The notes below the pieces were generated by a model. It worked only from the letters and a program-made list of their open reading frames with translations. It was not told where the DNA came from and did no database searches. This document shows positions 3,242 through 17,488 of a stretch of DNA of 64,000 nucleotides, piece by piece (position 1 is the first letter of the stretch; every line of letters begins with the position of its first letter). This DNA comes from Escherichia coli (GTDB lineage: Bacteria; Pseudomonadota; Gammaproteobacteria; Enterobacterales; Enterobacteriaceae). A program made the translations under genes and the position numbers. The DNA is taken from the NCBI RefSeq assembly GCF_030384885.1, contig NZ_CP128613.1. One strand, written 5' to 3'.

Positions 3242-5082
3242 TTATTGCGACTGCCGGACACGTTGACCACGGCAAAACAACCTTATTGCAGGCGATTACT
3301 GGCGTAAATGCCGACCGTCTGCCGGAAGAAAAAAAGCGCGGTATGACCATCGATCTCGGCTATGCCTACTGGCCGCAGTCAGATGGTCGCGTGCCTGGTT
3401 TTATCGACGTTCCCGGCCATGAAAAATTTCTTTCCAACATGCTGGCGGGCGTCGGGGGAATCGATCACGCGCTGTTGGTGGTGGCGTGCGATGACGGCGT
3501 GATGGCACAGACTCGTGAGCATCTGGCGATTTTGCAGCTGACCGGTAACCCGATGCTGACAGTGGCGCTGACCAAAGCCGATCGCGTGGACGAAGCGCGT
3601 GTTGATGAGGTTGAACGCCAGGTAAAGGAGGTGCTGCGGGAATACGGTTTTGCTGAGGCAAAACTGTTTATCACCGCAGCAACCGAAGGCCGGGGAATTG
3701 ATGCCCTGCGCGAGCATCTGCTTCAGTTACCAGAACGTGAACACGCCAGCCAACATAGCTTCCGCCTCGCTATCGACCGTGCTTTTACCGTAAAAGGTGC
3801 CGGGCTGGTCGTCACCGGTACGGCGTTAAGTGGGGAAGTGAAGGTAGGCGATTCACTCTGGCTGACTGGTGTAAATAAACCGATGCGCGTGCGTGCGCTA
3901 CATGCGCAAAATCAGCCAACAGAAACTGCCCATGCCGGGCAGCGTATCGCGCTTAACATCGCGGGTGATGCGGAAAAAGAGCAGATTAACCGTGGCGACT
4001 GGCTGCTTGCCGATGCGCCGCCGGAGCCGTTCACACGGGTGATTGTCGAGCTTCAAACCCATACACCGCTGACCCAGTGGCAGCCGCTGCATATTCACCA
4101 CGCCGCCAGCCACGTCACGGGACGCGTTTCGCTGCTGGAAGATAACCTTGCCGAGTTGGTGTTCGACACGCCGCTGTGGCTGGCAGATAACGATCGCTTA
4201 GTGCTACGCGATATCTCGGCCCGCAACACGCTGGCGGGGGCGCGCGTGGTGATGCTTAACCCGCCGCGTCGCGGTAAACGTAAGCCGGAATATCTGCAAT
4301 GGCTGGCGTCTCTTGCACAGGCGCAGAGCGATGCCGATGCGTTAGCTATTCATCTGGAACGCGGAGCGGTTAACCTTGCTGATTTCGCCTGGGCGCGCCA
4401 GCTCAACGGCGAAGGGATGCGTGAACTGCTGCAGCAACCGGGCTATATTCAGGCCGGTTATAGCTTGTTGAATGCGCCGGTTGCCGCTCGTTGGCAGCGT
4501 AAAATTCTCGATACCCTGGCGACTTATCATGAGCAGCATCGCGATGAACCAGGTCCTGGGCGCGAGCGTCTGCGGCGCATGGCGTTGCCAATGGAAGATG
4601 AAGCGCTGGTGCTGTTGCTGATTGAAAAGATGCGCGAAAGCGGCGACATCCTCAGTCATCACGGTTGGCTGCATCTGCCGGATCATAAAGCGGGATTCAG
4701 CGAAGAGCAGCAGGCTATCTGGCAAAAAGCGGAGCCGCTGTTTGGTGACGAGCCGTGGTGGGTGCGTGACCTGGCAAAAGAGACGGGAACCGACGAGCAG
4801 GCAATGCGTTTGACGCTACGCCAGGCGGCCCAACAGGGGATAATTACCGCGATCGTTAAAGATCGTTATTACCGTAACGATCGGATTGTCGAGTTTGCCA
4901 ATATGATCCGCGATCTCGATCAGGAATGTGGTTCAACCTGCGCGGCGGATTTCCGCGATCGCTTAGGTGTAGGCCGAAAGCTGGCAATTCAAATTCTGGA
5001 ATATTTTGACCGTATTGGCTTTACGCGTCGCCGTGGAAATGATCATTTATTGCGCGACGCATTATTATTTCCCGAAAAATAA
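3238..5082 (+). CDS. selB: Selenocysteine-specific translation elongation factor
   Basis: 614-aa ORF with N-terminal GTPase motif [11 protein letters not shown], recognised. Confidence 0.93.
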
Positions 5083-8411: not shown

Positions 8412-8747
8412 TTAATCTCGCGTTTCGATGGTGAGCGGGCGGACCAGGCTGTACAGCCACAGACCAAAACAAGCGATGGTGCCAATCACCACGGTGAGGA
8501 ACACACTGACTGACAGGCCTGCAAGCAATCCCGCAGGCAGGGCCAGCAGGCCGTGGATCACGGTGTCGTTCCATCTCACCAGATCGTAGCCAAACATGCC
8601 TAAAACGCCGCAAACCAGACCGTAAATCACCATTGGTGTTCCGAGGCCAATCAGCAATAAACGGTAGATAATTGAAGGTTTAATACGCTTTATCTGTACT
8701 GTGGATGTTTTACTGGGGTTATTCATTAGTTTGGTCAATAGTTCCAT
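8412..8747 (-). CDS. Hypothetical small membrane protein (three hydrophobic segments); may be spurious
   Basis: Open frame in otherwise intergenic DNA; strongly hydrophobic helix-like segments; start uncertain (ATG 8747 or track start 8795). Confidence 0.3.
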   Translation of the reverse strand: MELLTKLMNNPSKTSTVQIKRIKPSIIYRLLLIGLGTPMVIYGLVCGVLGMFGYDLVRWNDTVIHGLLALPAGLLAGLSVSVFLTVVIGTIACFGLWLYSLVRPLTIETRD

Positions 8748-8908: not shown

Positions 8909-9232
8909 ATGTTCCTGGACTATTTTGCACTGGGAGTGCTTATTTTTGTATTTCTGGTGATATTCTATGGGATTATTATTTTACATGATATTCCCTACCT
9001 GATTGCTAAAAAACGTAATCATCCTCATGCCGACGCCATTCATGTTGCTGGTTGGGTGAGTCTTTTTACGCTGCATGTTATCTGGCCATTTTTGTGGATT
9101 TGGGCCACGCTTTACCGCCCGGAGCGGGGATGGGGAATGCAAAACTATGACTCCTCCGTTGTGCAACTACAACAGCGTATTGCCGGGCTGGAGAAACAGC
9201 TCGCCGACATCAAATCCTCTTCTGCCGAGTAA
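8909..9232 (+). CDS. yiaW: Inner membrane protein YiaW (DUF3302)
   Basis: 107 aa from ATG 8909 ([11 protein letters not shown]), RBS gagggaaa; 6 bp upstream of yiaV. Confidence 0.85.
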
Positions 9233-9237
9233 TACTT

Positions 9238-10374
9238 ATGGATTTACTGATTATTTTGACCTATGTGGCTTTCGCATGGGCAATGTTTAAGATCTTCAAA
9301 ATTCCTGTAAATAAATGGACCATTCCCACCGCGGCCCTGGGTGGCATATTTATTGTCAGCGGTCTAATTCTGTTAATGAACTATAACCATCCGTATACCT
9401 TTAAAGCGCAAAAAGCGGTTATTTCTATTCCTGTTGTCCCGCAGGTGACAGGCGTGGTGATCGAAGTGACGGACAAGAAAAATACGCTGATTAAAAAAGG
9501 TGAGGTGCTATTTCGACTGGACCCGACGCGTTATCAGGCGCGGGTGGATCGGCTGATGGCGGATATCGTTACCGCAGAACATAAACAGCGGGCGTTGGGC
9601 GCAGAGTTAGATGAGATGGCGGCGAATACTCAGCAGGCAAAGGCCACGCGGGATAAATTCGCTAAAGAGTACCAGCGTTACGCACGCGGCAGCCAGGCGA
9701 AAGTAAACCCGTTTTCAGAACGCGATATTGATGTGGCGCGGCAAAATTATCTGGCGCAGGAAGCCTCCGTAAAGTCATCGGCGGCGGAACAAAAACAGAT
9801 CCAGAGCCAGCTGGATAGCCTGGTGTTGGGTGAACATTCTCAAATCGCCAGCCTGAAAGCGCAGCTCGCGGAAGCAAAATATAACCTTGAGCAGACGATA
9901 GTGCGTGCGCCGAGCGATGGTTATGTGACCCAAGTGCTGATTCGTCCGGGTACCTATGCCGCATCGCTGCCGCTACGTCCTGTGATGGTGTTTATACCCG
10001 ATCAGAAACGACAAATTGTGGCGCAGTTCCGTCAGAACTCCTTGCTGCGACTGGCTCCCGGCGATGATGCGGAAGTGGTGTTTAATGCTCTGCCAGGTAA
10101 GGTATTCAGCGGTAAGCTGGCAGCCATTAGTCCAGCTGTTCCCGGCGGAGCTTATCAGTCGACCGGCACCTTACAGACGTTAAACACAGCACCGGGTTCA
10201 GATGGCGTTATAGCGACCATTGAACTGGATGAGCACACTGAGTTGAGCGCTTTACCAGACGGTATTTACGCCCAGGTGGCGGTTTACTCTGATCATTTCA
10301 GCCATGTCTCGGTGATGCGCAAAGTGCTGTTACGCATGACCAGTTGGGTGCATTACCTTTATCTCGATCATTAA
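9238..10374 (+). CDS. yiaV: HlyD-like membrane fusion-type inner membrane protein YiaV
   Basis: 378-aa ORF, N-terminal TM segment and coiled-coil region, recognised. Confidence 0.88.
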
Positions 10375-11345: not shown

Positions 11346-11468
11346 CGCAACAGCCCAATTATATATAATTTTATATATTACTATATAAATATGAATCTTG
11401 CACCGGAGAAATTGTAAGCATTATTATGCCGACTCTTTTTTATCTTATTTTAAAATGGAATACCGGAC

Positions 11469-12209
11469 ATGTTAATTAACCGCAATATTGTGGCGTTATT
11501 TGCGTTACCTTTTATGGCAAGCGCAACTGCTTCTGAATTATCCATTGGTGCTGGTGCAGCTTATAATGAATCGCCTTATCGTGGTTATAATGAAAATACA
11601 AAGGCAATTCCGCTGATTAGTTATGAAGGTGATTCATTTTATGTTCGTCAGACCACGTTAGGTTTTATTCTGTCGCAAAGTGAAAAAAATGAACTTAGTC
11701 TGACCGCATCCTGGATGCCGCTGGAATTTGACCCTGCAGATAATGACGATCATGCCATGCAACAGCTTGATAAGCGTGATAGTACGGCTATGGCGGGGGT
11801 TGCCTGGTATCACCACGAGCGTTGGGGAACCGTGAAAGCCTCTGCGGCTGCGGACGTTCTGGATAACAGCAACGGCTGGGTGGGGGAGCTATCGGTATTT
11901 CACAAAATGCAGATAGGTCGCCTGTCGCTGACACCTGCACTGGGCGTTCTCTATTATGACGAGAATTTCAGTGACTATTACTATGGCATTTCAGAGAGTG
12001 AGTCCCGTCGTAGCGGTCTGGCAAGTTATTCCGCGCAGGATGCCTGGGTGCCCTATGTCAGCCTGACGGCAAAATACCCGATAGGAGAGCACATCGTATT
12101 GATGGCGAGTGCCGGATACAGCGAGCTGCCGGAAGAGATTACCGACAGCCCGATGATTGATCGTAATGAGAGTTTTACCTTTGTCACCGGCGTGAGCTGG
12201 CGTTTTTAA
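11469..12209 (+). CDS. yiaT: Outer membrane protein YiaT (MipA/OmpV family)
   Basis: 246-aa ORF with signal peptide, recognised. Confidence 0.88.
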   Translation: MLINRNIVALFALPFMASATASELSIGAGAAYNESPYRGYNENTKAIPLISYEGDSFYVRQTTLGFILSQSEKNELSLTASWMPLEFDPADNDDHAMQQLDKRDSTAMAGVAWYHHERWGTVKASAAADVLDNSNGWVGELSVFHKMQIGRLSLTPALGVLYYDENFSDYYYGISESESRRSGLASYSAQDAWVPYVSLTAKYPIGEHIVLMASAGYSELPEEITDSPMIDRNESFTFVTGVSWRF

Positions 12210-12218
12210 TTTACCGGT

Positions 12219-12338
12219 GGATGTCGGTGCGGCTGGCCTACGCTCTCGCACTGACCTTCAGGCTTGATAAGACGCGTTAAGCGTCGCATCAGGCAATGTG
12301 CACCCTACGTTGGATGCGGCGCGAGCGCCTTATCCAAC
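12219..12338. repeat. REP/BIME palindromic units directly abutting the stop codon of the GH127 gene
   Basis: ggcttgataagacgcgttaagcgtcgcatcaggc and ggatgcggcgcgagcgccttatccaacctac REP-type palindromes. Confidence 0.8.
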
Positions 12339-14309
12339 CTACGGATGGCAATGCTTTTCCTCATTCACCCAGATCCGCATTTCGCCTTCACCCCGGTTAG
12401 CCCAGCTAAACCACGGGATAAATGTCAGAGTTTGCGGCTGGCGTTTGGCTGGCGCGCTGTCGTAATGCCACAGCGGTTGCTGCTCTGGATAGCTCTGTTC
12501 ATACCGGTAACCCGGTGCCTGGATTAAGATCTTATGGCTGAACAATCCCTTACCTTCAAATGTCGTAAATGGCGCATCGGTGGGCAGCCACAGATTATGC
12601 AGTGACTCGCCGTTGTCGGCCTGTTCCAGGCAATACACCAGCGGGCCGCGCTGAATCGCCACTTTTCCGGCGACGTGACGCACCAGCGGGTTACCGTAAA
12701 CGCGACGTACCGGCATTGGCAACGTCAGATTCAGCGTGTCGCCCTCCTGCCATTCGCGGGTAATGTGCAAATACCCTTTACGAATATCCTGCTCGACCTC
12801 TTCCCCATTCAATGTAATCTGCGGCTGTGTGCACCAGTCCGGCAGACGTAAAGCCAGCGTATGACGCACCGGCTGGGGCGATTCAACCGCAATTGTCACC
12901 TGTTCCTGCCACGGATAGTTTCCGCTAACCCGCAGACGCAGCGTGCCATTTTCTACCGGCACTTCCATGCTGTTTCCTGCGTAGATGTTGATATACAACG
13001 CATCTTCACGCGGCGTGTAGAGATAATGACCAATCGAGGTTAGCACGCGGGCGATATTTGGCGGACAACAAGCGCAACCAAACCAACGCTGGCGGATCGG
13101 CTTAACGTGATCGTAGATATGGTTGAATTTCAGCGATTTTGGATGTACTTCCAGCGGATTCACATAGAAGAAATGTTTGCCATCCAGCGCCATGCCGCCG
13201 AGCACGGTGTTGTACAGTGCGCGCTCCATCACATCGGCATAGTGACTGTCGCCTTCCATTTCCAGCATTCGCCGGGCGAACATCATCAGGCCGATGGAAG
13301 CACAGCTTTCGGCGTATACCGTGTCATTCGGCAGATCGTAATCGCTGCTGAACGCTTCGCCGCTGCTTTGTGAGCCAATGCCGCCGGTAATATATAACTG
13401 ACGCTGGGCCATATTGTTCCACAGCCGCAGGCAGTCCTGACGCTTGCTTTCATCGTGACTTAAACGCGCGAGATGCGCGACGCCGGTCATCAGGTAGACA
13501 AAACGTACCGCGTGACCAATGGCGGTTTGCTGCTGTGCGATGGGCAAATGTGCCTGGCTGTAGGCTTTGTCTTTCACCATCCACGCCGGGCCGTAGGTGT
13601 GCCAGTGCGAGGTCTGTCCGCGCTTTTCATATTCCTGGTCGTAATAGTGCGGTTGCGCACCACGCTGTTCGACAAAATAGTTCGTCAGCGCCAGGTAGCG
13701 CGGCTCTTCGGTCACTTCATACAGGCGCATTAGTGCCAGTTCAATTTCCGGGTGACCAGGATAACCGTGTAACTTACTTTCACCTGGACCAAATACGCTG
13801 TCGATATGATCGGCCAGACGGCAAACCACTTCCAGCAAGCGCCGCTTGCCCGTGGCCTGGAAGAAGGCGACTCCGGCTTCAATCAGATGACCGGCGCAGT
13901 AAAGTTCATGACACTCCGCCAGATTGCTCCAGCGTTCTTCGGGCGCTTTTACCGTAAAGTAAGTATTGAGATAGCCATCTTCGCACTGGGCGGAAGCGAC
14001 CAGTTCGATTACCTCGTCAGCAGTTTTTTCCAGTTCGGCATCCGGCTTCTGGCACAGCGACCAGGCTACCGCTTCCAGCCATTTGGCGACGTCGCTGTCC
14101 TGAAACACCATCCCGTAAAATTCACCGTCTTGCAGTCCTGCGGCAATGCGAAAGTTTTCAATCGCATGGCTGGGTTCCGCTTCTGGGATACGATCGTTCA
14201 AGGCATCCCACTGATAAGGAATCACCACGTCGCGGACCAGTTGTTGGTACTGACCGAGGAACGGATCGCTGACCGTCAGTTTATGCAGATCGACTTCCGA
14301 AATGTTCAT
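12339..14309 (-). CDS. Glycoside hydrolase family 127 (DUF1680; beta-L-arabinofuranosidase-like)
   Basis: Start chosen at ATG 14309 (MNISEVDL) with AAGGAG RBS, about 656 aa; contains E-S-C (codons near 13298-13310) and C-A-C-C (near 13065-13076) matching the Zn/Cys catalytic motifs of GH127; 10 bp after the transporter stop. Confidence 0.8.
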   Translation of the reverse strand: MNISEVDLHKLTVSDPFLGQYQQLVRDVVIPYQWDALNDRIPEAEPSHAIENFRIAAGLQDGEFYGMVFQDSDVAKWLEAVAWSLCQKPDAELEKTADEVIELVASAQCEDGYLNTYFTVKAPEERWSNLAECHELYCAGHLIEAGVAFFQATGKRRLLEVVCRLADHIDSVFGPGESKLHGYPGHPEIELALMRLYEVTEEPRYLALTNYFVEQRGAQPHYYDQEYEKRGQTSHWHTYGPAWMVKDKAYSQAHLPIAQQQTAIGHAVRFVYLMTGVAHLARLSHDESKRQDCLRLWNNMAQRQLYITGGIGSQSSGEAFSSDYDLPNDTVYAESCASIGLMMFARRMLEMEGDSHYADVMERALYNTVLGGMALDGKHFFYVNPLEVHPKSLKFNHIYDHVKPIRQRWFGCACCPPNIARVLTSIGHYLYTPREDALYINIYAGNSMEVPVENGTLRLRVSGNYPWQEQVTIAVESPQPVRHTLALRLPDWCTQPQITLNGEEVEQDIRKGYLHITREWQEGDTLNLTLPMPVRRVYGNPLVRHVAGKVAIQRGPLVYCLEQADNGESLHNLWLPTDAPFTTFEGKGLFSHKILIQAPGYRYEQSYPEQQPLWHYDSAPAKRQPQTLTFIPWFSWANRGEGEMRIWVNEEKHCHP

Positions 14310-14319
14310 CTTGTGCTCC

Positions 14320-15720
14320 TTAAGGCTGTACATGACGCTGACGCAGGTCGCTAGCAATGCGTGACATCATAGGGTTATTGAGTTTGCAAAAGCGGATCGC
14401 CATCGCCAGCAGCAGGTGGAACAGCGCAGGCAGCAATGTTTCCATCGCCGCGATCCCGCCAAGCGAACTGGCGGTCTGGTTTTCCACGCCTGGCTGGTAG
14501 GCGACAAAAATAAACAGCAGGCTGATGATCCCGGCGCTGGAGGCCCAGGCCAGCTTGATGAAAAACAGATTGAAGGCGAAGTTCATGCCGGAAGAACGTA
14601 CGCGGGTTTTCCACTCGCCGTAGTCATCGGCAAAGGCCATCAATGAGAAGTGCAATGGCAATGTGAAGCCAAGAATCACGCCATTACCAAGGATCACCGC
14701 CAGCCACAGCGTTTGATAAGCCGGGCCAGAAGGCAGGAACCACATCAACACCGCCAGCGCGGCGAGGAGCAGGTTGGTGTAGTAGTAAATTTTGACGGTA
14801 TCGAAACGTCGCGTTAACGGGCTGACAATCACCGAGCCGATAATGGAGGCGAAGGTGACCATAGTGAAGAACAGCGACGTGTAGCCCGTACTGCCTTGTA
14901 AGACGTAGGTAATGAAGTACATATACCCACCGCCGCGAATATTAAAGACGTTAATCAGCAGGAAAGACATGACCAGCATCAGCAGCAGTTGGTCGTTGTT
15001 TCGCAGCCCGGCAAGATGTTCGCGCAGGGTAAATTTCCCCATTGTGGAGAGTGGCACCCGTTCACGAACCCAGAAGAAACAGCACAGGAACATCACCACA
15101 GCGATGGCGCACAGCACGCCGACGCCCAGTTGATAGCCGCGCGCGGCATTACCCTGACCGAAGAGATCTACCATCCACGGCAGGCCAACCGAAACCAGAA
15201 ATCCCGCTACGCCGCAGAGAACGAATCGCCAGGACTGGCAGGAGATCACTTCATTGTGGCGGGTGGTCATGGTGTTGATCAGCGCGCAGTACGGCACGTT
15301 GATGGCGGTATAACCGACTGAAAGGAGCAGGTAAGTGCCGAACGCCCAGGCGATTTTTACTCCCATGCTGGCATCTGGCACGGTGAACGTCAGGATGCCG
15401 ATAATGCCGATGGGAATGGCAATCCACAACTGCCACGGACGAAAGCGCCCCCAGCGACTTTGCGTCCGGTCGGCAATGACGCCCATCACCGGGTCGGAGA
15501 TGGCATCAAACACGCGCAGTGCAATAAACAGCGTGCCGACCAGCGCCGGAGTTAAGCCAAAAACGTCGGTGTAGAAAAAGGTGAGAAAGTTCATGATCAG
15601 GCAGGTTATGACGGTGCCGCCAGCGTCACCCAGGCCGTAGCCTATTTTTTCCCGTACAGATAACGCGTCGTCAATTTTACCTTTAGCGATATCAGCGGTA
15701 GTAATCGGTGTAGAGGTCAT
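14320..15720 (-). CDS. GPH-family (glycoside-pentoside-hexuronide) cation symporter, MFS superfamily
   Basis: About 466 aa from ATG 15720 ([16 protein letters not shown]); multi-TM; GPH signature [13 protein letters not shown]; track start at 15735 is TTG. Confidence 0.8.
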
Positions 15721-15945
15721 AGATATTCCTCGCAAATAGAGAGCATTTTTTTGTTTTATTGCAATGACCTGATTAATTTCGCCGTTATCTGGAATATCAA
15801 CAAGGCGAGAAAAGAGTAAAAAAAGGTGACGATTCCGACCTGAATTTAAAAGTGTGAATTGGATCAGGTGAAATTAATGTTTTTGATTAATAATCAAAAG
15901 GTAATGTGTTTAATCATTAATGAATAAGCGGGAAATTACATATCA
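15721..15945. promoter_or_regulatory. AT-rich divergent promoter region between GPH/GH127 operon and AraC gene, with palindromes
   Basis: 225-bp intergenic; palindromes ttttgattaataatcaaaa (15881-15899) and tcattaatga (15914-15923). Confidence 0.45.
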
Positions 15946-16761
15946 ATGCTCGAATTATCCATGACGTTACCGATTAAAGTGCAAAATGGTGGATTATTTA
16001 TTTCCCGTGGCGTAGGGAGGCATCCGGCAAGGCGGCTGGAGTCATGGGAAATTATCTTTGTCGAAAAAGGTCGATTAGCGATTCAGGAAGAAGAGCGGAT
16101 ATTTCTGGTCGATGCGGGAGAGAGTTTATTACTCTGGCCGAACCGACAGCATGTTGGGGTAGAGGATTTTCCCGCCGATCTCAAATTTTACTGGCTGCAT
16201 TTTGAGGTTAAAGCGCCGGATAGCGACCCGCGCTGGCTCACTCATCTTAGCGTGCCGCAACAAACGAAGGTTGCCGATCCGCAGGCGCTGGTGGCCCTGT
16301 TTCGCCAGTTCTTAAGCGAACAGGAAAAGCATCAACGCACTCCGGCGCTGGAGTTTATTGTGCTGCTGATTTTGCAGCAACTCACCCGTGACGCGCGTCT
16401 TGATGAACAGGCCGATGCCGCAGGTACCACGCTTGCCTGGAAAGCGCAGAAACTGATCCGCACGCAATATCATCGCCCGCTTTCCACTGCGCTTTTAGCC
16501 CGCGAGCTGTACTGCAATGCCGATTATCTTGGGCGCGTCTATCGGCGGGTGTTTCATCTGACGTTAACAGAAGCAATCCACCGCCAGCGGGTGCGCGAAG
16601 CCGAAAAGCTGTTAATTAGCGACGCGCGCTCGCTCACGGAAGTGGCGGCGTTGTGCGGGTTTAATGACGTTGGCTATTTCCGGCAGATTTTTCGCAAACA
16701 CACCGGATTAACGCCAGCTGCGTGGAAGCGACGTTACAGCAAGGAACATATCAATTCGTAG
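15946..16761 (+). CDS. AraC/XylS-family transcriptional regulator
   Basis: 271-aa ORF; C-terminal dual HTH (LTEVAALCGFNDVGYFRQIFRKHTGLTPAAWK); N-terminal sugar-binding-type domain. Confidence 0.8.
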   Translation: MLELSMTLPIKVQNGGLFISRGVGRHPARRLESWEIIFVEKGRLAIQEEERIFLVDAGESLLLWPNRQHVGVEDFPADLKFYWLHFEVKAPDSDPRWLTHLSVPQQTKVADPQALVALFRQFLSEQEKHQRTPALEFIVLLILQQLTRDARLDEQADAAGTTLAWKAQKLIRTQYHRPLSTALLARELYCNADYLGRVYRRVFHLTLTEAIHRQRVREAEKLLISDARSLTEVAALCGFNDVGYFRQIFRKHTGLTPAAWKRRYSKEHINS

Positions 16762-16792
16762 TGTCGGGGCAATGAAGCCCCGGCGTGAGAGA

Positions 16793-17488
16793 TTACTGCC
16801 CGTAATAGGCATTGGCCCCATGCTTACGCAGGTAGTGCTTATCCAGCAGTTCGTTTTGCATGGCAGGGAGCTGTGGTGCAAGCTGGCGCGAGAACAGGCC
16901 CATATAGGCGCACTCTTCCAGCACTACGGCATTATGCACCGCATCGGCGGCATTTTTTCCCCAGGCGAACGGGCCGTGAGAATGCACCAGTACCGCCGGG
17001 ATTTGTGCCGGACTCCTGCCACGTTCTTCGAAGGTTTCAATGATCACTTTGCCGGTCTGGTATTCATACTCGCCGTTAATCTCCGCTGCGGTCATCTGTC
17101 GCGTGCAGGGGATTGCGCCATAGAAATAATCGGCGTGAGTGGTGCCCCAGGCGGGGAGATCCAGCCCGGCCTGCGACCAGATGGTGGCGTGGCGCGAGTG
17201 GGTATGCACAATACCACCGATTTCGGCATAGCGACGGTAAAGCGCCAGATGCGTTGGCGTATCGGACGAGGGCTTTTTGCTACCTTCCACCACCTTGCCG
17301 CTGGCTATCTCAACCACCACCATATCGTCGGCGGTCATCACGTCGTACTCGACGCCGGAAGGTTTGATTACCATCCATTGCCGCGTTTCGTCTACCGCGC
17401 TGACATTGCCCCAGGTAAACGTCATCAGATGGTGAGCGGGAAGCGCCAGATTTGCCGCCAGCACGTCGGCTTTCAGTTGCTCTAACAT
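16793..17488 (-). CDS. sgbE: L-ribulose-5-phosphate 4-epimerase
   Basis: 231-aa ORF, AraD-like class II aldolase fold, recognised. Confidence 0.9.

Follow-up and report, generated by a model that had tools for sequence, protein, structure and literature searches.

What do three genes that stand between yiaT and sgbE in one Escherichia coli strain do for their bearer, and why does E. coli K-12, the usual reference for gene order, have only two pseudogenes in their place? We examined this locus in a window of 64,000 nucleotides from E. coli contig NZ_CP128613.1 (RefSeq assembly GCF_030384885.1), whose positions are used throughout; the module at 12,339-16,761 consists of a GH127 glycoside hydrolase gene, a GPH:cation symporter gene and a divergent gene for an AraC/XylS-family regulator (Table 1). 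Our reading, to which we assign a probability of roughly 0.6, is that the module imports and splits beta-L-arabinofuranosyl sugars and passes L-arabinose on to AraBAD.

The gene borders are consistent between sources. The open reading frame (ORF) listing gives 12339-14357 on the minus strand with an annotated ATG at 14309, 14320-15735 on the minus strand with an annotated ATG at 15720, and 15946-16761 on the plus strand, and a 100%-identical region of RefSeq E. coli 2013C-4282 (NZ_CP027579.1) is annotated with the three genes at the coordinates of Table 1, labeled "glycoside hydrolase family 127 protein" and "MFS transporter" for the first two and as a helix-turn-helix (AraC-type) protein for the third. 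The flanks are yiaT (11469-12209) and the sgbE orthologue (16793-17488), which PGAP labels araD. Between the transporter stop and the hydrolase ATG there is a gap of 10 bp, and the Shine-Dalgarno sequence of the hydrolase gene, AAGGAG, overlaps the transporter TAA stop (14320-14322), which suggests a single transcript and possibly translational coupling; GAGGAA stands before the transporter ATG.

The hydrolase has the three domains expected of GH127, with Pfam matches to the catalytic (PF07944, 2.1e-111, residues 12-427), middle (PF20736, 4.3e-24) and C-terminal (PF20737, 3.4e-25) domains. Compared with solved structures, it matches best Ara127N of Geobacillus stearothermophilus (4qjy; E=1.9e-236, 790 bits), collinear over residues 11-650 and identical at 55% of 630 aligned residues as counted on the printed alignment; second-best is HypBA1 of Bifidobacterium longum (3wkw; E=9e-153, 513 bits), and a Bacteroides aceric acid hydrolase (5mqo) reaches 321 bits only. 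The motifs E-S-C (E334, C336) and C-A-C-C (C412, C414, C415) are present, and E318, E334, C336, C414 and C415 align with HypBA1 E322, E338, C340, C417 and C418, where E322 is the acid/base, and E322 and E338 are numbered as reported by Ito et al. 2014. Binding residues H134, Y137, H186 and R269 likewise align with HypBA1 H142, Y145, H194 and R273. For HypBA1, experiments have established that C417 acts as the nucleophile, and the zinc ligands C340 and C418 are conserved, unlike the neighboring C415 (PMC10728902); a Cys3-Glu zinc site together with the substrate-binding residues R273, H194, H142 and Y145 has been described (PMC10850190). The predicted activity of the E. coli protein is that of a zinc/cysteine retaining beta-L-arabinofuranosidase. 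Its N-terminus, MNISEVDLHKLTVSDPF, contains on manual reading no hydrophobic stretch like that of a signal peptide, which, taken with the intracellular location of its homologue HypBA1 (PMC7263609), points to a cytoplasmic enzyme.

With 333.2 bits, the transporter exceeds the cut-off of 231.35 set for the family model TIGR00792 gph, over residues 25-462 and model positions 1-437 of 437. Salmonella MelB (4m64) can be aligned with it from one end to the other, its RVFDAISDP and its loop 2-3 GPH motif matching RIWDAINDP and NATRSRWGKFKPW of MelB. Residues R52, D55 and D59, which we take to form part of the MelB cation site, are kept, and D19, N58, D124 and W128, presumably sugar-contacting in MelB, are replaced. 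Membership of the GPH family and cation coupling are thereby supported, and the sugar specificity of MelB is not transferable. The nearest subfamily models, YagG-type (357 against 610 bits) and PRK11462 (325 against 836 bits), both stay under their cut-offs, as do the more distant MelB (209 against 456 bits) and glucuronide transporter (194 against 528 bits) models. Since no specific GPH model is passed, the substrate cannot be transferred by orthology.

The regulator combines a double helix-turn-helix (PF12833, 3.9e-19; PF00165, 4.8e-08) with an AraC-type cupin domain (PF02311, 1.5e-08). It is not AraC itself, scoring 61.2 bits with the equivalog NF007860, whose cut-off is 208. PGAP calls it "helix-turn-helix domain-containing protein" here and calls its orthologue in other E. 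coli "AraC family transcriptional regulator"; this difference is an effect of naming thresholds and not of truncation, because Pfam detects both cupin and helix-turn-helix in the window's protein. A preliminary description of this DNA, made from the letters and their ORFs, had placed the three genes at the same coordinates, assigned them to GH127, to GPH (by its signature) and to the AraC family, matched the E-x-C and C-x-C-C motifs to the GH127 active site, proposed cytoplasmic hydrolysis and taken the 10-bp spacing and the separate ribosome-binding site as signs of co-transcription; the annotation, domain searches and alignments above agree with it on each of these counts.

How the module is controlled can be read in part from its AT-rich divergent spacer. 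Aligning the transporter-regulator spacers of 70 species (215-383 bp), we found sharply conserved blocks, defined by at least 85% conservation, amid otherwise variable sequence. One of them, cCTGAtccaatTCACAcTTT, is CRP-like, in that its conserved columns coincide on manual reading with the CRP consensus TGTGA-N6-TCACA. Next to it lies the longer block TCAGGTCGGAATCGTCACCTTTTTTTACTCTTTTC, with GTCGGAAT, CTTTTT and TACTTTT as sub-blocks, each at or above the same threshold, and by analogy with araI at P_BAD it is a putative binding site of the AraC-family regulator. A putative promoter of the transporter-hydrolase operon follows, with a transcription start predicted near 15765; a generic promoter scanner, which needs an A at position 2 of the -10 element, called no promoter in the intergenic region. 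On the regulator side, TGATTAT (ATAATCA on the plus strand) within a palindrome is a candidate -10 element of the regulator gene or an operator. The gene for the AraC-family regulator is divergent, the putative activator site adjoins the -35 element, and the putative CRP site lies farther upstream; as far as conservation and consensus can tell, the region appears to be laid out like P_BAD and melR/melAB. At the other end of the regulator gene, the hairpin GGGGCAATGAAGCCCC is probably a bidirectional terminator that parts the module from the yiaK-sgbE operon; a terminator scanner based on T-runs did not call it.

Table 1. Features of the module and its borders (window coordinates)
Feature	Position	Strand	Basis
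GH127 glycoside hydrolase, 656 aa	12339-14309	-	Pfam, PDB alignments, RefSeq WP_001026869.1, dN/dS
GPH:cation symporter, 466 aa, first gene of the two-gene operon	14320-15720	-	TIGR00792, MelB 4m64 alignment, dN/dS
AraC/XylS-family regulator, 271 aa, N-terminal cupin and C-terminal double helix-turn-helix	15946-16761	+	Pfam, conservation, dN/dS
Hydrolase Shine-Dalgarno AAGGAG, overlapping the transporter stop	14316-14321	-	read from sequence
Divergent AT-rich control region, 225 bp	15721-15945		GC about 0.40; conserved blocks in 70-species alignment
Putative transporter-hydrolase promoter: -35 TTGATA (15795-15800), 17-bp spacer, -10 ATTAAT (15772-15777)	15772-15805	-	sequence, conservation
Conserved CCTTGTTG, overlapping -35 TTGATA	15798-15805	-	conservation across 70 species
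35-bp block TCAGGTCGGAATCGTCACCTTTTTTTACTCTTTTC, about -78 to -44, directly upstream of -35; putative regulator site	15809-15843	-	conservation
CRP-like site cCTGAtccaatTCACAcTTT, columns GATC-N4-TCACA-N-TTT; center about -95 from predicted start	15849-15868	-	at least 85% conserved
Palindrome TTTTGATTA-T-TAATCAAAA, holding conserved TGATTAT (15890-15896)	15881-15899		conservation
GC-rich hairpin GGGGCAATGAAGCCCC within the 31 bp that separate sgbE from the regulator gene convergent on it	16766-16781		sequence
K-12-type missing segment 1, 210 bp: REP-like palindromes and hydrolase 3' end	12237-12446		BLAST; GGCTGG microhomology junction
K-12-type missing segment 2, 4,021 bp	12637-16657		BLAST of MG1655 and LY180

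Put together, the module would work as follows. The AraC-family regulator and cAMP-CRP would activate the symporter-hydrolase operon when substrate or product is present, and the GPH symporter would import a small beta-L-arabinofuranosyl sugar able to pass porins, likeliest beta-1,2-L-arabinobiose or another short oligosaccharide or glycoside like it. The extracellular enzymes of other microbes would free these substrates from plant extensins, arabinogalactan proteins (AGPs) or arabinan. In the cytoplasm, the GH127 enzyme would remove the terminal beta-L-arabinofuranose by a retaining mechanism, with zinc-bound Cys414 as nucleophile and Glu318 as acid/base, and the free L-arabinose would enter the core AraA/AraB/AraD pathway. 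We infer the identity of the substrate, the inducer, the roles of activator and CRP, and the ecology of cross-feeding. That the products scavenged would be those of other microbes or of plants follows from the absence of a releasing enzyme from the module, and a scavenging role fits the module's presence in many plant- and gut-associated genera.

Several points weigh against this function. Beside the module there is no gene for an extracellular enzyme (GH121, GH146 or GH43) to release the substrate, so that its supply depends on other organisms, and the promoter elements are predictions from consensus, conservation and manual reading. The literature searched holds no enzyme, transport, growth, expression or regulatory experiment on any enterobacterial member and nothing relevant on ysaC or ysaD, the K-12 pseudogenes at this position, and a paper on arabinose in O157:H7 does not mention the locus; the same search turned up no account of it as a characterized locus with a different function, an outcome that the preliminary description had allowed for. 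GH127 also holds other specificities, among them aceric acid hydrolase and 3,6-anhydro-D-galactosidase. The specificity of Ara127N, the closest solved structure, reportedly rests largely on homology. Furthermore, 12 residues of HypBA1 loop A (amino acids 35-49) are missing from both the E. coli hydrolase and Ara127N. In HypBA1 this loop covers the active site (PMC10850190), and its shortening may mean that the preference for aglycone or chain length differs from that of HypBA1.

In an alternative reading, the architecture is as described and the sugar is another one: some other furanoside, a glycoside from the secondary metabolism of plants or microbes, or an uncommon sugar of the acidic or anhydro kind, such as other GH127 members act on, with a product other than L-arabinose. 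The family is polyspecific, its aceric acid hydrolase model matches our hydrolase at 454 bits, GH127 enzymes related to carrageenan are described in PMC5698469, the shortened loop A leaves the active site more open than that of HypBA1, and a Salmonella GH127 gene is up-regulated on lactulose, in a transcriptome only (PMC13304739). The transporter, too, is compatible with another sugar in not keeping the sugar-contacting residues of MelB. However, the hydrolase keeps every catalytic and -1 subsite residue of HypBA1, and the response to lactulose is explicable by CRP derepression. Moreover, membership of the aceric acid hydrolase equivalog (NF049879, BT1003 type) is rejected, the score of 454.3 bits being less than half the cut-off of 950, and the arabinofuranosidase structures score 513-790 bits versus 321 for the aceric acid hydrolase. 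We therefore consider another glycoside unlikely and retain a beta-L-arabinofuranosyl sugar as the most likely substrate.

The module extends well beyond E. coli. A scan with one genome per species gave 263 relatives, of which the best 80 were examined; among these, the hydrolase is 97% identical in Escherichia, about 88% in Citrobacter, and 78-86% in Kluyvera, Klebsiella, Raoultella, Enterobacter, Kosakonia, Phytobacter, Pantoea, Leclercia, Lelliottia, Buttiauxella, Salmonella diarizonae and others; many of the carrier genera, such as Pantoea, Kosakonia, Phytobacter and Enterobacter, are plant-associated. About 70 of these 80 have, by tblastn, the symporter gene directly upstream of the hydrolase gene and the regulator gene divergent, at near-identical spacing and with varying neighbors. 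The full order yiaT-module-sgbE recurs in Citrobacter, Enterobacter, Lelliottia, Huaxiibacter and Pseudocitrobacter, and in Pantoea the neighbors are unrelated (diguanylate cyclase, AI-2E transporter, phosphodiesterase, ABC ATPase and GcvR). Where the module is placed differently, inspection of the Pantoea and Bradyrhizobium neighbors shows no further glycosidase gene and no arabinose gene moving with it. Against Citrobacter, Enterobacter and Pantoea, the ratio of nonsynonymous to synonymous substitution rates (dN/dS, Nei-Gojobori) amounts to 0.03-0.06 in the hydrolase gene, 0.06-0.10 in the symporter gene and 0.10-0.12 in the regulator gene, values that are approximate with dS near saturation; all three genes are under purifying selection. 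We read the module as a self-contained, vertically inherited unit of the Enterobacterales.

Two departures from the standard arrangement were seen. Several Bradyrhizobium species carry a GH127 gene whose protein is 71-72% identical, which stands without symporter or regulator genes next to a histidine kinase and a peptidase-like protein; since this identity is unusually high across classes, it suggests that the hydrolase gene by itself was transferred horizontally long ago. The gut isolate Enterobacteriaceae bacterium MGYG-HGUT-00110 has, in addition to a standard module (84% GH127), a second pair of GH127 (71%) and GPH (70%) genes without an AraC-type regulator gene.

Within E. coli, the history of the locus is recorded in K-12 itself. 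MG1655 has two annotated pseudogenes between sgbE and yiaT, ysaC (b4648) and ysaD (b4649). When MG1655 and the K-12-like strain LY180 were aligned against the window by BLAST, the K-12 flank ran to 12236, a piece of 190 bp corresponded to 12447-12636, and the match resumed at 16658, leaving out the two missing segments of Table 1. ysaD is the 190-bp piece, internal to the hydrolase gene and 89% identical, and ysaC is 16658-16761, the last approximately 104 bp of the regulator gene. Both are therefore remnants of the window's hydrolase and regulator genes at the same chromosomal position, but they are non-functional fragments, whereas the window holds the intact ancestral genes. The preliminary description had called the three genes extra relative to K-12, in which yiaT would be immediately followed by sgbE. 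The two are indeed neighbors in K-12, but with ysaD and ysaC between them, and "extra" inverts the history: K-12 carries a deletion scar, and the order yiaT-module-sgbE is common to other genera. K-12 lost the module by deletion, and the window's order is the ancestral one for the family, because Citrobacter, Enterobacter, Lelliottia and others share it.

Comparison of the yiaT-sgbE interval across E. coli, which the preliminary description had proposed, places the 4,021-bp segment in 2,313-2,324 of 5,426 complete genomes (about 43%), on the chromosome only, in single copy and at 95-99% identity. BL21 and O157:H7 are among the carriers, and BL21, O157:H7 strain 2159 and the window each have all three ORFs intact. 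Among genomes sampled at even intervals along the ranking, those that lack the module share one pattern of three pieces over about 1,964 bp, which suggests that the loss is one old deletion pattern that spread. Other variants of the locus also exist. A sizeable group of E. coli matches only from about base 862-957 of the query onward, with the module and sgbE kept and the yiaT sequence unmatched, so that yiaT has apparently been deleted or replaced in these lineages, and a few genomes match on the sgbE side only.

With more than half of the complete genomes having lost the module via one shared deletion pattern, it could also be that the genes that remain are intact but cryptic or decaying, rarely or never expressed and heading for loss. 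No phenotype has been reported, and in O157:H7 ATCC 43888 the symporter gene (8921-10321 of its locus) has TGG changed to TGA at codon 164, a W164 stop for which it is annotated as a pseudogene. This lesion is specific to ATCC 43888 and is rejected as a feature of the whole O157:H7 lineage, the gene of strain 2159 being intact. Against decay stand the three intact ORFs in the window, BL21 and this other O157:H7 strain, the dN/dS of 0.03-0.12 across genera and the promoter motifs conserved in 70 species. We regard a cryptic module as improbable, compared with one that still serves the import and cleavage of beta-L-arabinofuranosyl sugars.

The preliminary description had linked the module, speculatively, to sgbE, and on that basis the imported sugar would be converted to L-ribulose-5-phosphate, epimerized by SgbE, and the module coupled to the yiaK-sgbE operon. 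SgbE is a paralogue of AraD, and roughly 30 of the 80 loci, from several genera, have an sgbE orthologue beside the regulator gene. However, the regulator gene is convergent on sgbE with a hairpin between them, making them separate transcription units; O157:H7 has the module intact with the whole yiaK-sgbE operon deleted, and K-12 keeps the operon without the module; the modules of Pantoea, Kluyvera, Buttiauxella and Leclercia have no adjacent sgbE; and AraBAD is core and sufficient for L-arabinose. These patterns of presence and absence lead us to reject a functional coupling to sgbE, which we hold to be very improbable, and the adjacency is best explained as inherited synteny. In O157:H7, a C-terminal fragment of the IclR-type gene yiaJ lies within 2 bp of the module regulator gene and is followed by ysaA (ATCC 43888 locus 11364-11504; strain 2159 locus 4627-4767).

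Least credible of all is that the module is a horizontally acquired islet that entered the lineage of this strain between yiaT and sgbE, a reading suggested by the fact that just 43% or so of the complete E. coli genomes carry it and by the 72%-identical Bradyrhizobium GH127, a hint that the hydrolase gene has at some point crossed from one phylum to another, but rejected for E. coli on account of the K-12-type remnants ysaD and ysaC at two deletion junctions, one with GGCTGG microhomology, and of the shared gene order in five other genera, with coding GC of 0.52-0.59 like that of the flanks, no integrase, insertion sequence or tRNA gene at the module borders in the annotated identical record, and uniformly chromosomal, single-copy occurrence at 95-99% identity.

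The vertically inherited module resembles several known systems without being identical to any of them. Ara127N, encoded by araN of G. stearothermophilus T6 (4QJY/4QK0), is its closest solved structure, collinear and with the same short loop A. It is reportedly cytoplasmic, and its gene is said to be the last one of a large arabinan-utilization cluster with ABC transporters; the E. coli hydrolase differs in belonging to a minimal three-gene unit with a GPH symporter. HypBA1 (Bll1HypBA1, BLLJ_0211) is likewise a three-domain GH127 enzyme of clan GH-P, with the nucleophile, acid/base, Cys3-Glu zinc site and binding residues conserved, and it acts inside the cell, as is predicted here, on an imported sugar (PMC7263609). 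In B. longum, the extracellular HypBA2 frees beta-1,2-arabinobiose from extensin-type glycoproteins, and once this sugar is imported, HypBA1 cleaves it inside the cell to two L-arabinose (PMC7263609). In contrast, catalytic-domain identity to HypBA1 is about 45-48% on a hand-transcribed alignment, the E. coli enzyme is without the 12 loop A residues, and the HypBA1 cluster has an ABC importer, a LacI-type regulator and extracellular GH121/GH43 enzymes where the E. coli module has a GPH symporter, an AraC-type regulator and no such enzymes.

The bifidobacterial BauR2 regulon (PMC5928203) likewise joins a cytoplasmic GH127 enzyme with a GPH symporter and a dedicated regulator, proposed for beta-arabino-oligosaccharides. 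In these other bifidobacteria, the HypBA1 orthologue is paired with the GPH symporter BauT, whose predicted role is the uptake of such oligosaccharides (PMC5928203). The regulator there is of the LacI type, whereas it is of the AraC type here, and both systems are predictions. The melAB operon, too, encodes a cytoplasmic glycosidase and a GPH symporter, and it is described in PMC13304739 as co-dependent on MelR and CRP. It differs from the module in gene order, which is transporter then hydrolase here, in having a GH4 and not a GH127 enzyme, and in substrate, and the regulator and CRP sites of the module are predicted.

Further features of the window lie outside these comparisons. The window begins within a gene for an RHS element core protein (1-915), and between aldB and yiaW, at 8412-8726 on the minus strand, a 104-aa "hypothetical protein" is annotated, where LY180 has a shorter annotated ORF. 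Two imperfect palindromes resembling REP elements, GCCTGATGCGACGCTTAACGCGTCTTATCAAGCC and GTTGGATAAGGCGCTCGCGCCGCATCCAAC as read on the reverse strand, lie in the spacer between yiaT and the hydrolase gene (12210-12338), and from 12237 on this spacer is missing in K-12-type genomes, inside the 210-bp deletion.

The genes described here are routinely annotated, the K-12 remnants have names, and the three families, the mechanism and the operon logic were already known; the significance of the finding is incremental. If our reading is true, beta-L-arabinofuranosyl sugars join the strain-variable carbon sources of E. coli, and the K-12 pseudogenes ysaC and ysaD are explained. More tentatively, and with doubt slightly outweighing belief, the module may be a strain-variable determinant of cross-feeding, by which about 43% of E. 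coli, including BL21 and O157:H7 and excluding K-12, together with many plant- and gut-associated Enterobacterales, would scavenge the beta-L-arabinofuranosyl di- and oligosaccharides that bifidobacteria, Bacteroides or plant enzymes free from extensins, AGPs and arabinan of the diet or the plant wall. In a bolder variant of this idea, open-loop enzymes of the Ara127N type would prefer a class of beta-L-arabinofuranosides new to GH127. GH127 appears as a variable E. coli gene of clade-dependent prevalence in a genomic study related to inflammatory bowel disease (IBD; bioRxiv 10.1101/2021.10.19.464957), and its co-segregation with invasiveness in E. coli is reported in another (PMC11879602); if such cross-feeding takes place, a niche advantage might underlie this co-segregation with invasive IBD isolates. 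BL21, the usual expression host for recombinant beta-L-arabinofuranosidases, has its own GH127 gene. If the proposed function is true, the module would also provide, with the genetic tools available in BL21, a simple proteobacterial model for a GH127 enzyme with a cysteine nucleophile and for a GPH transporter of beta-arabino-oligosaccharides.

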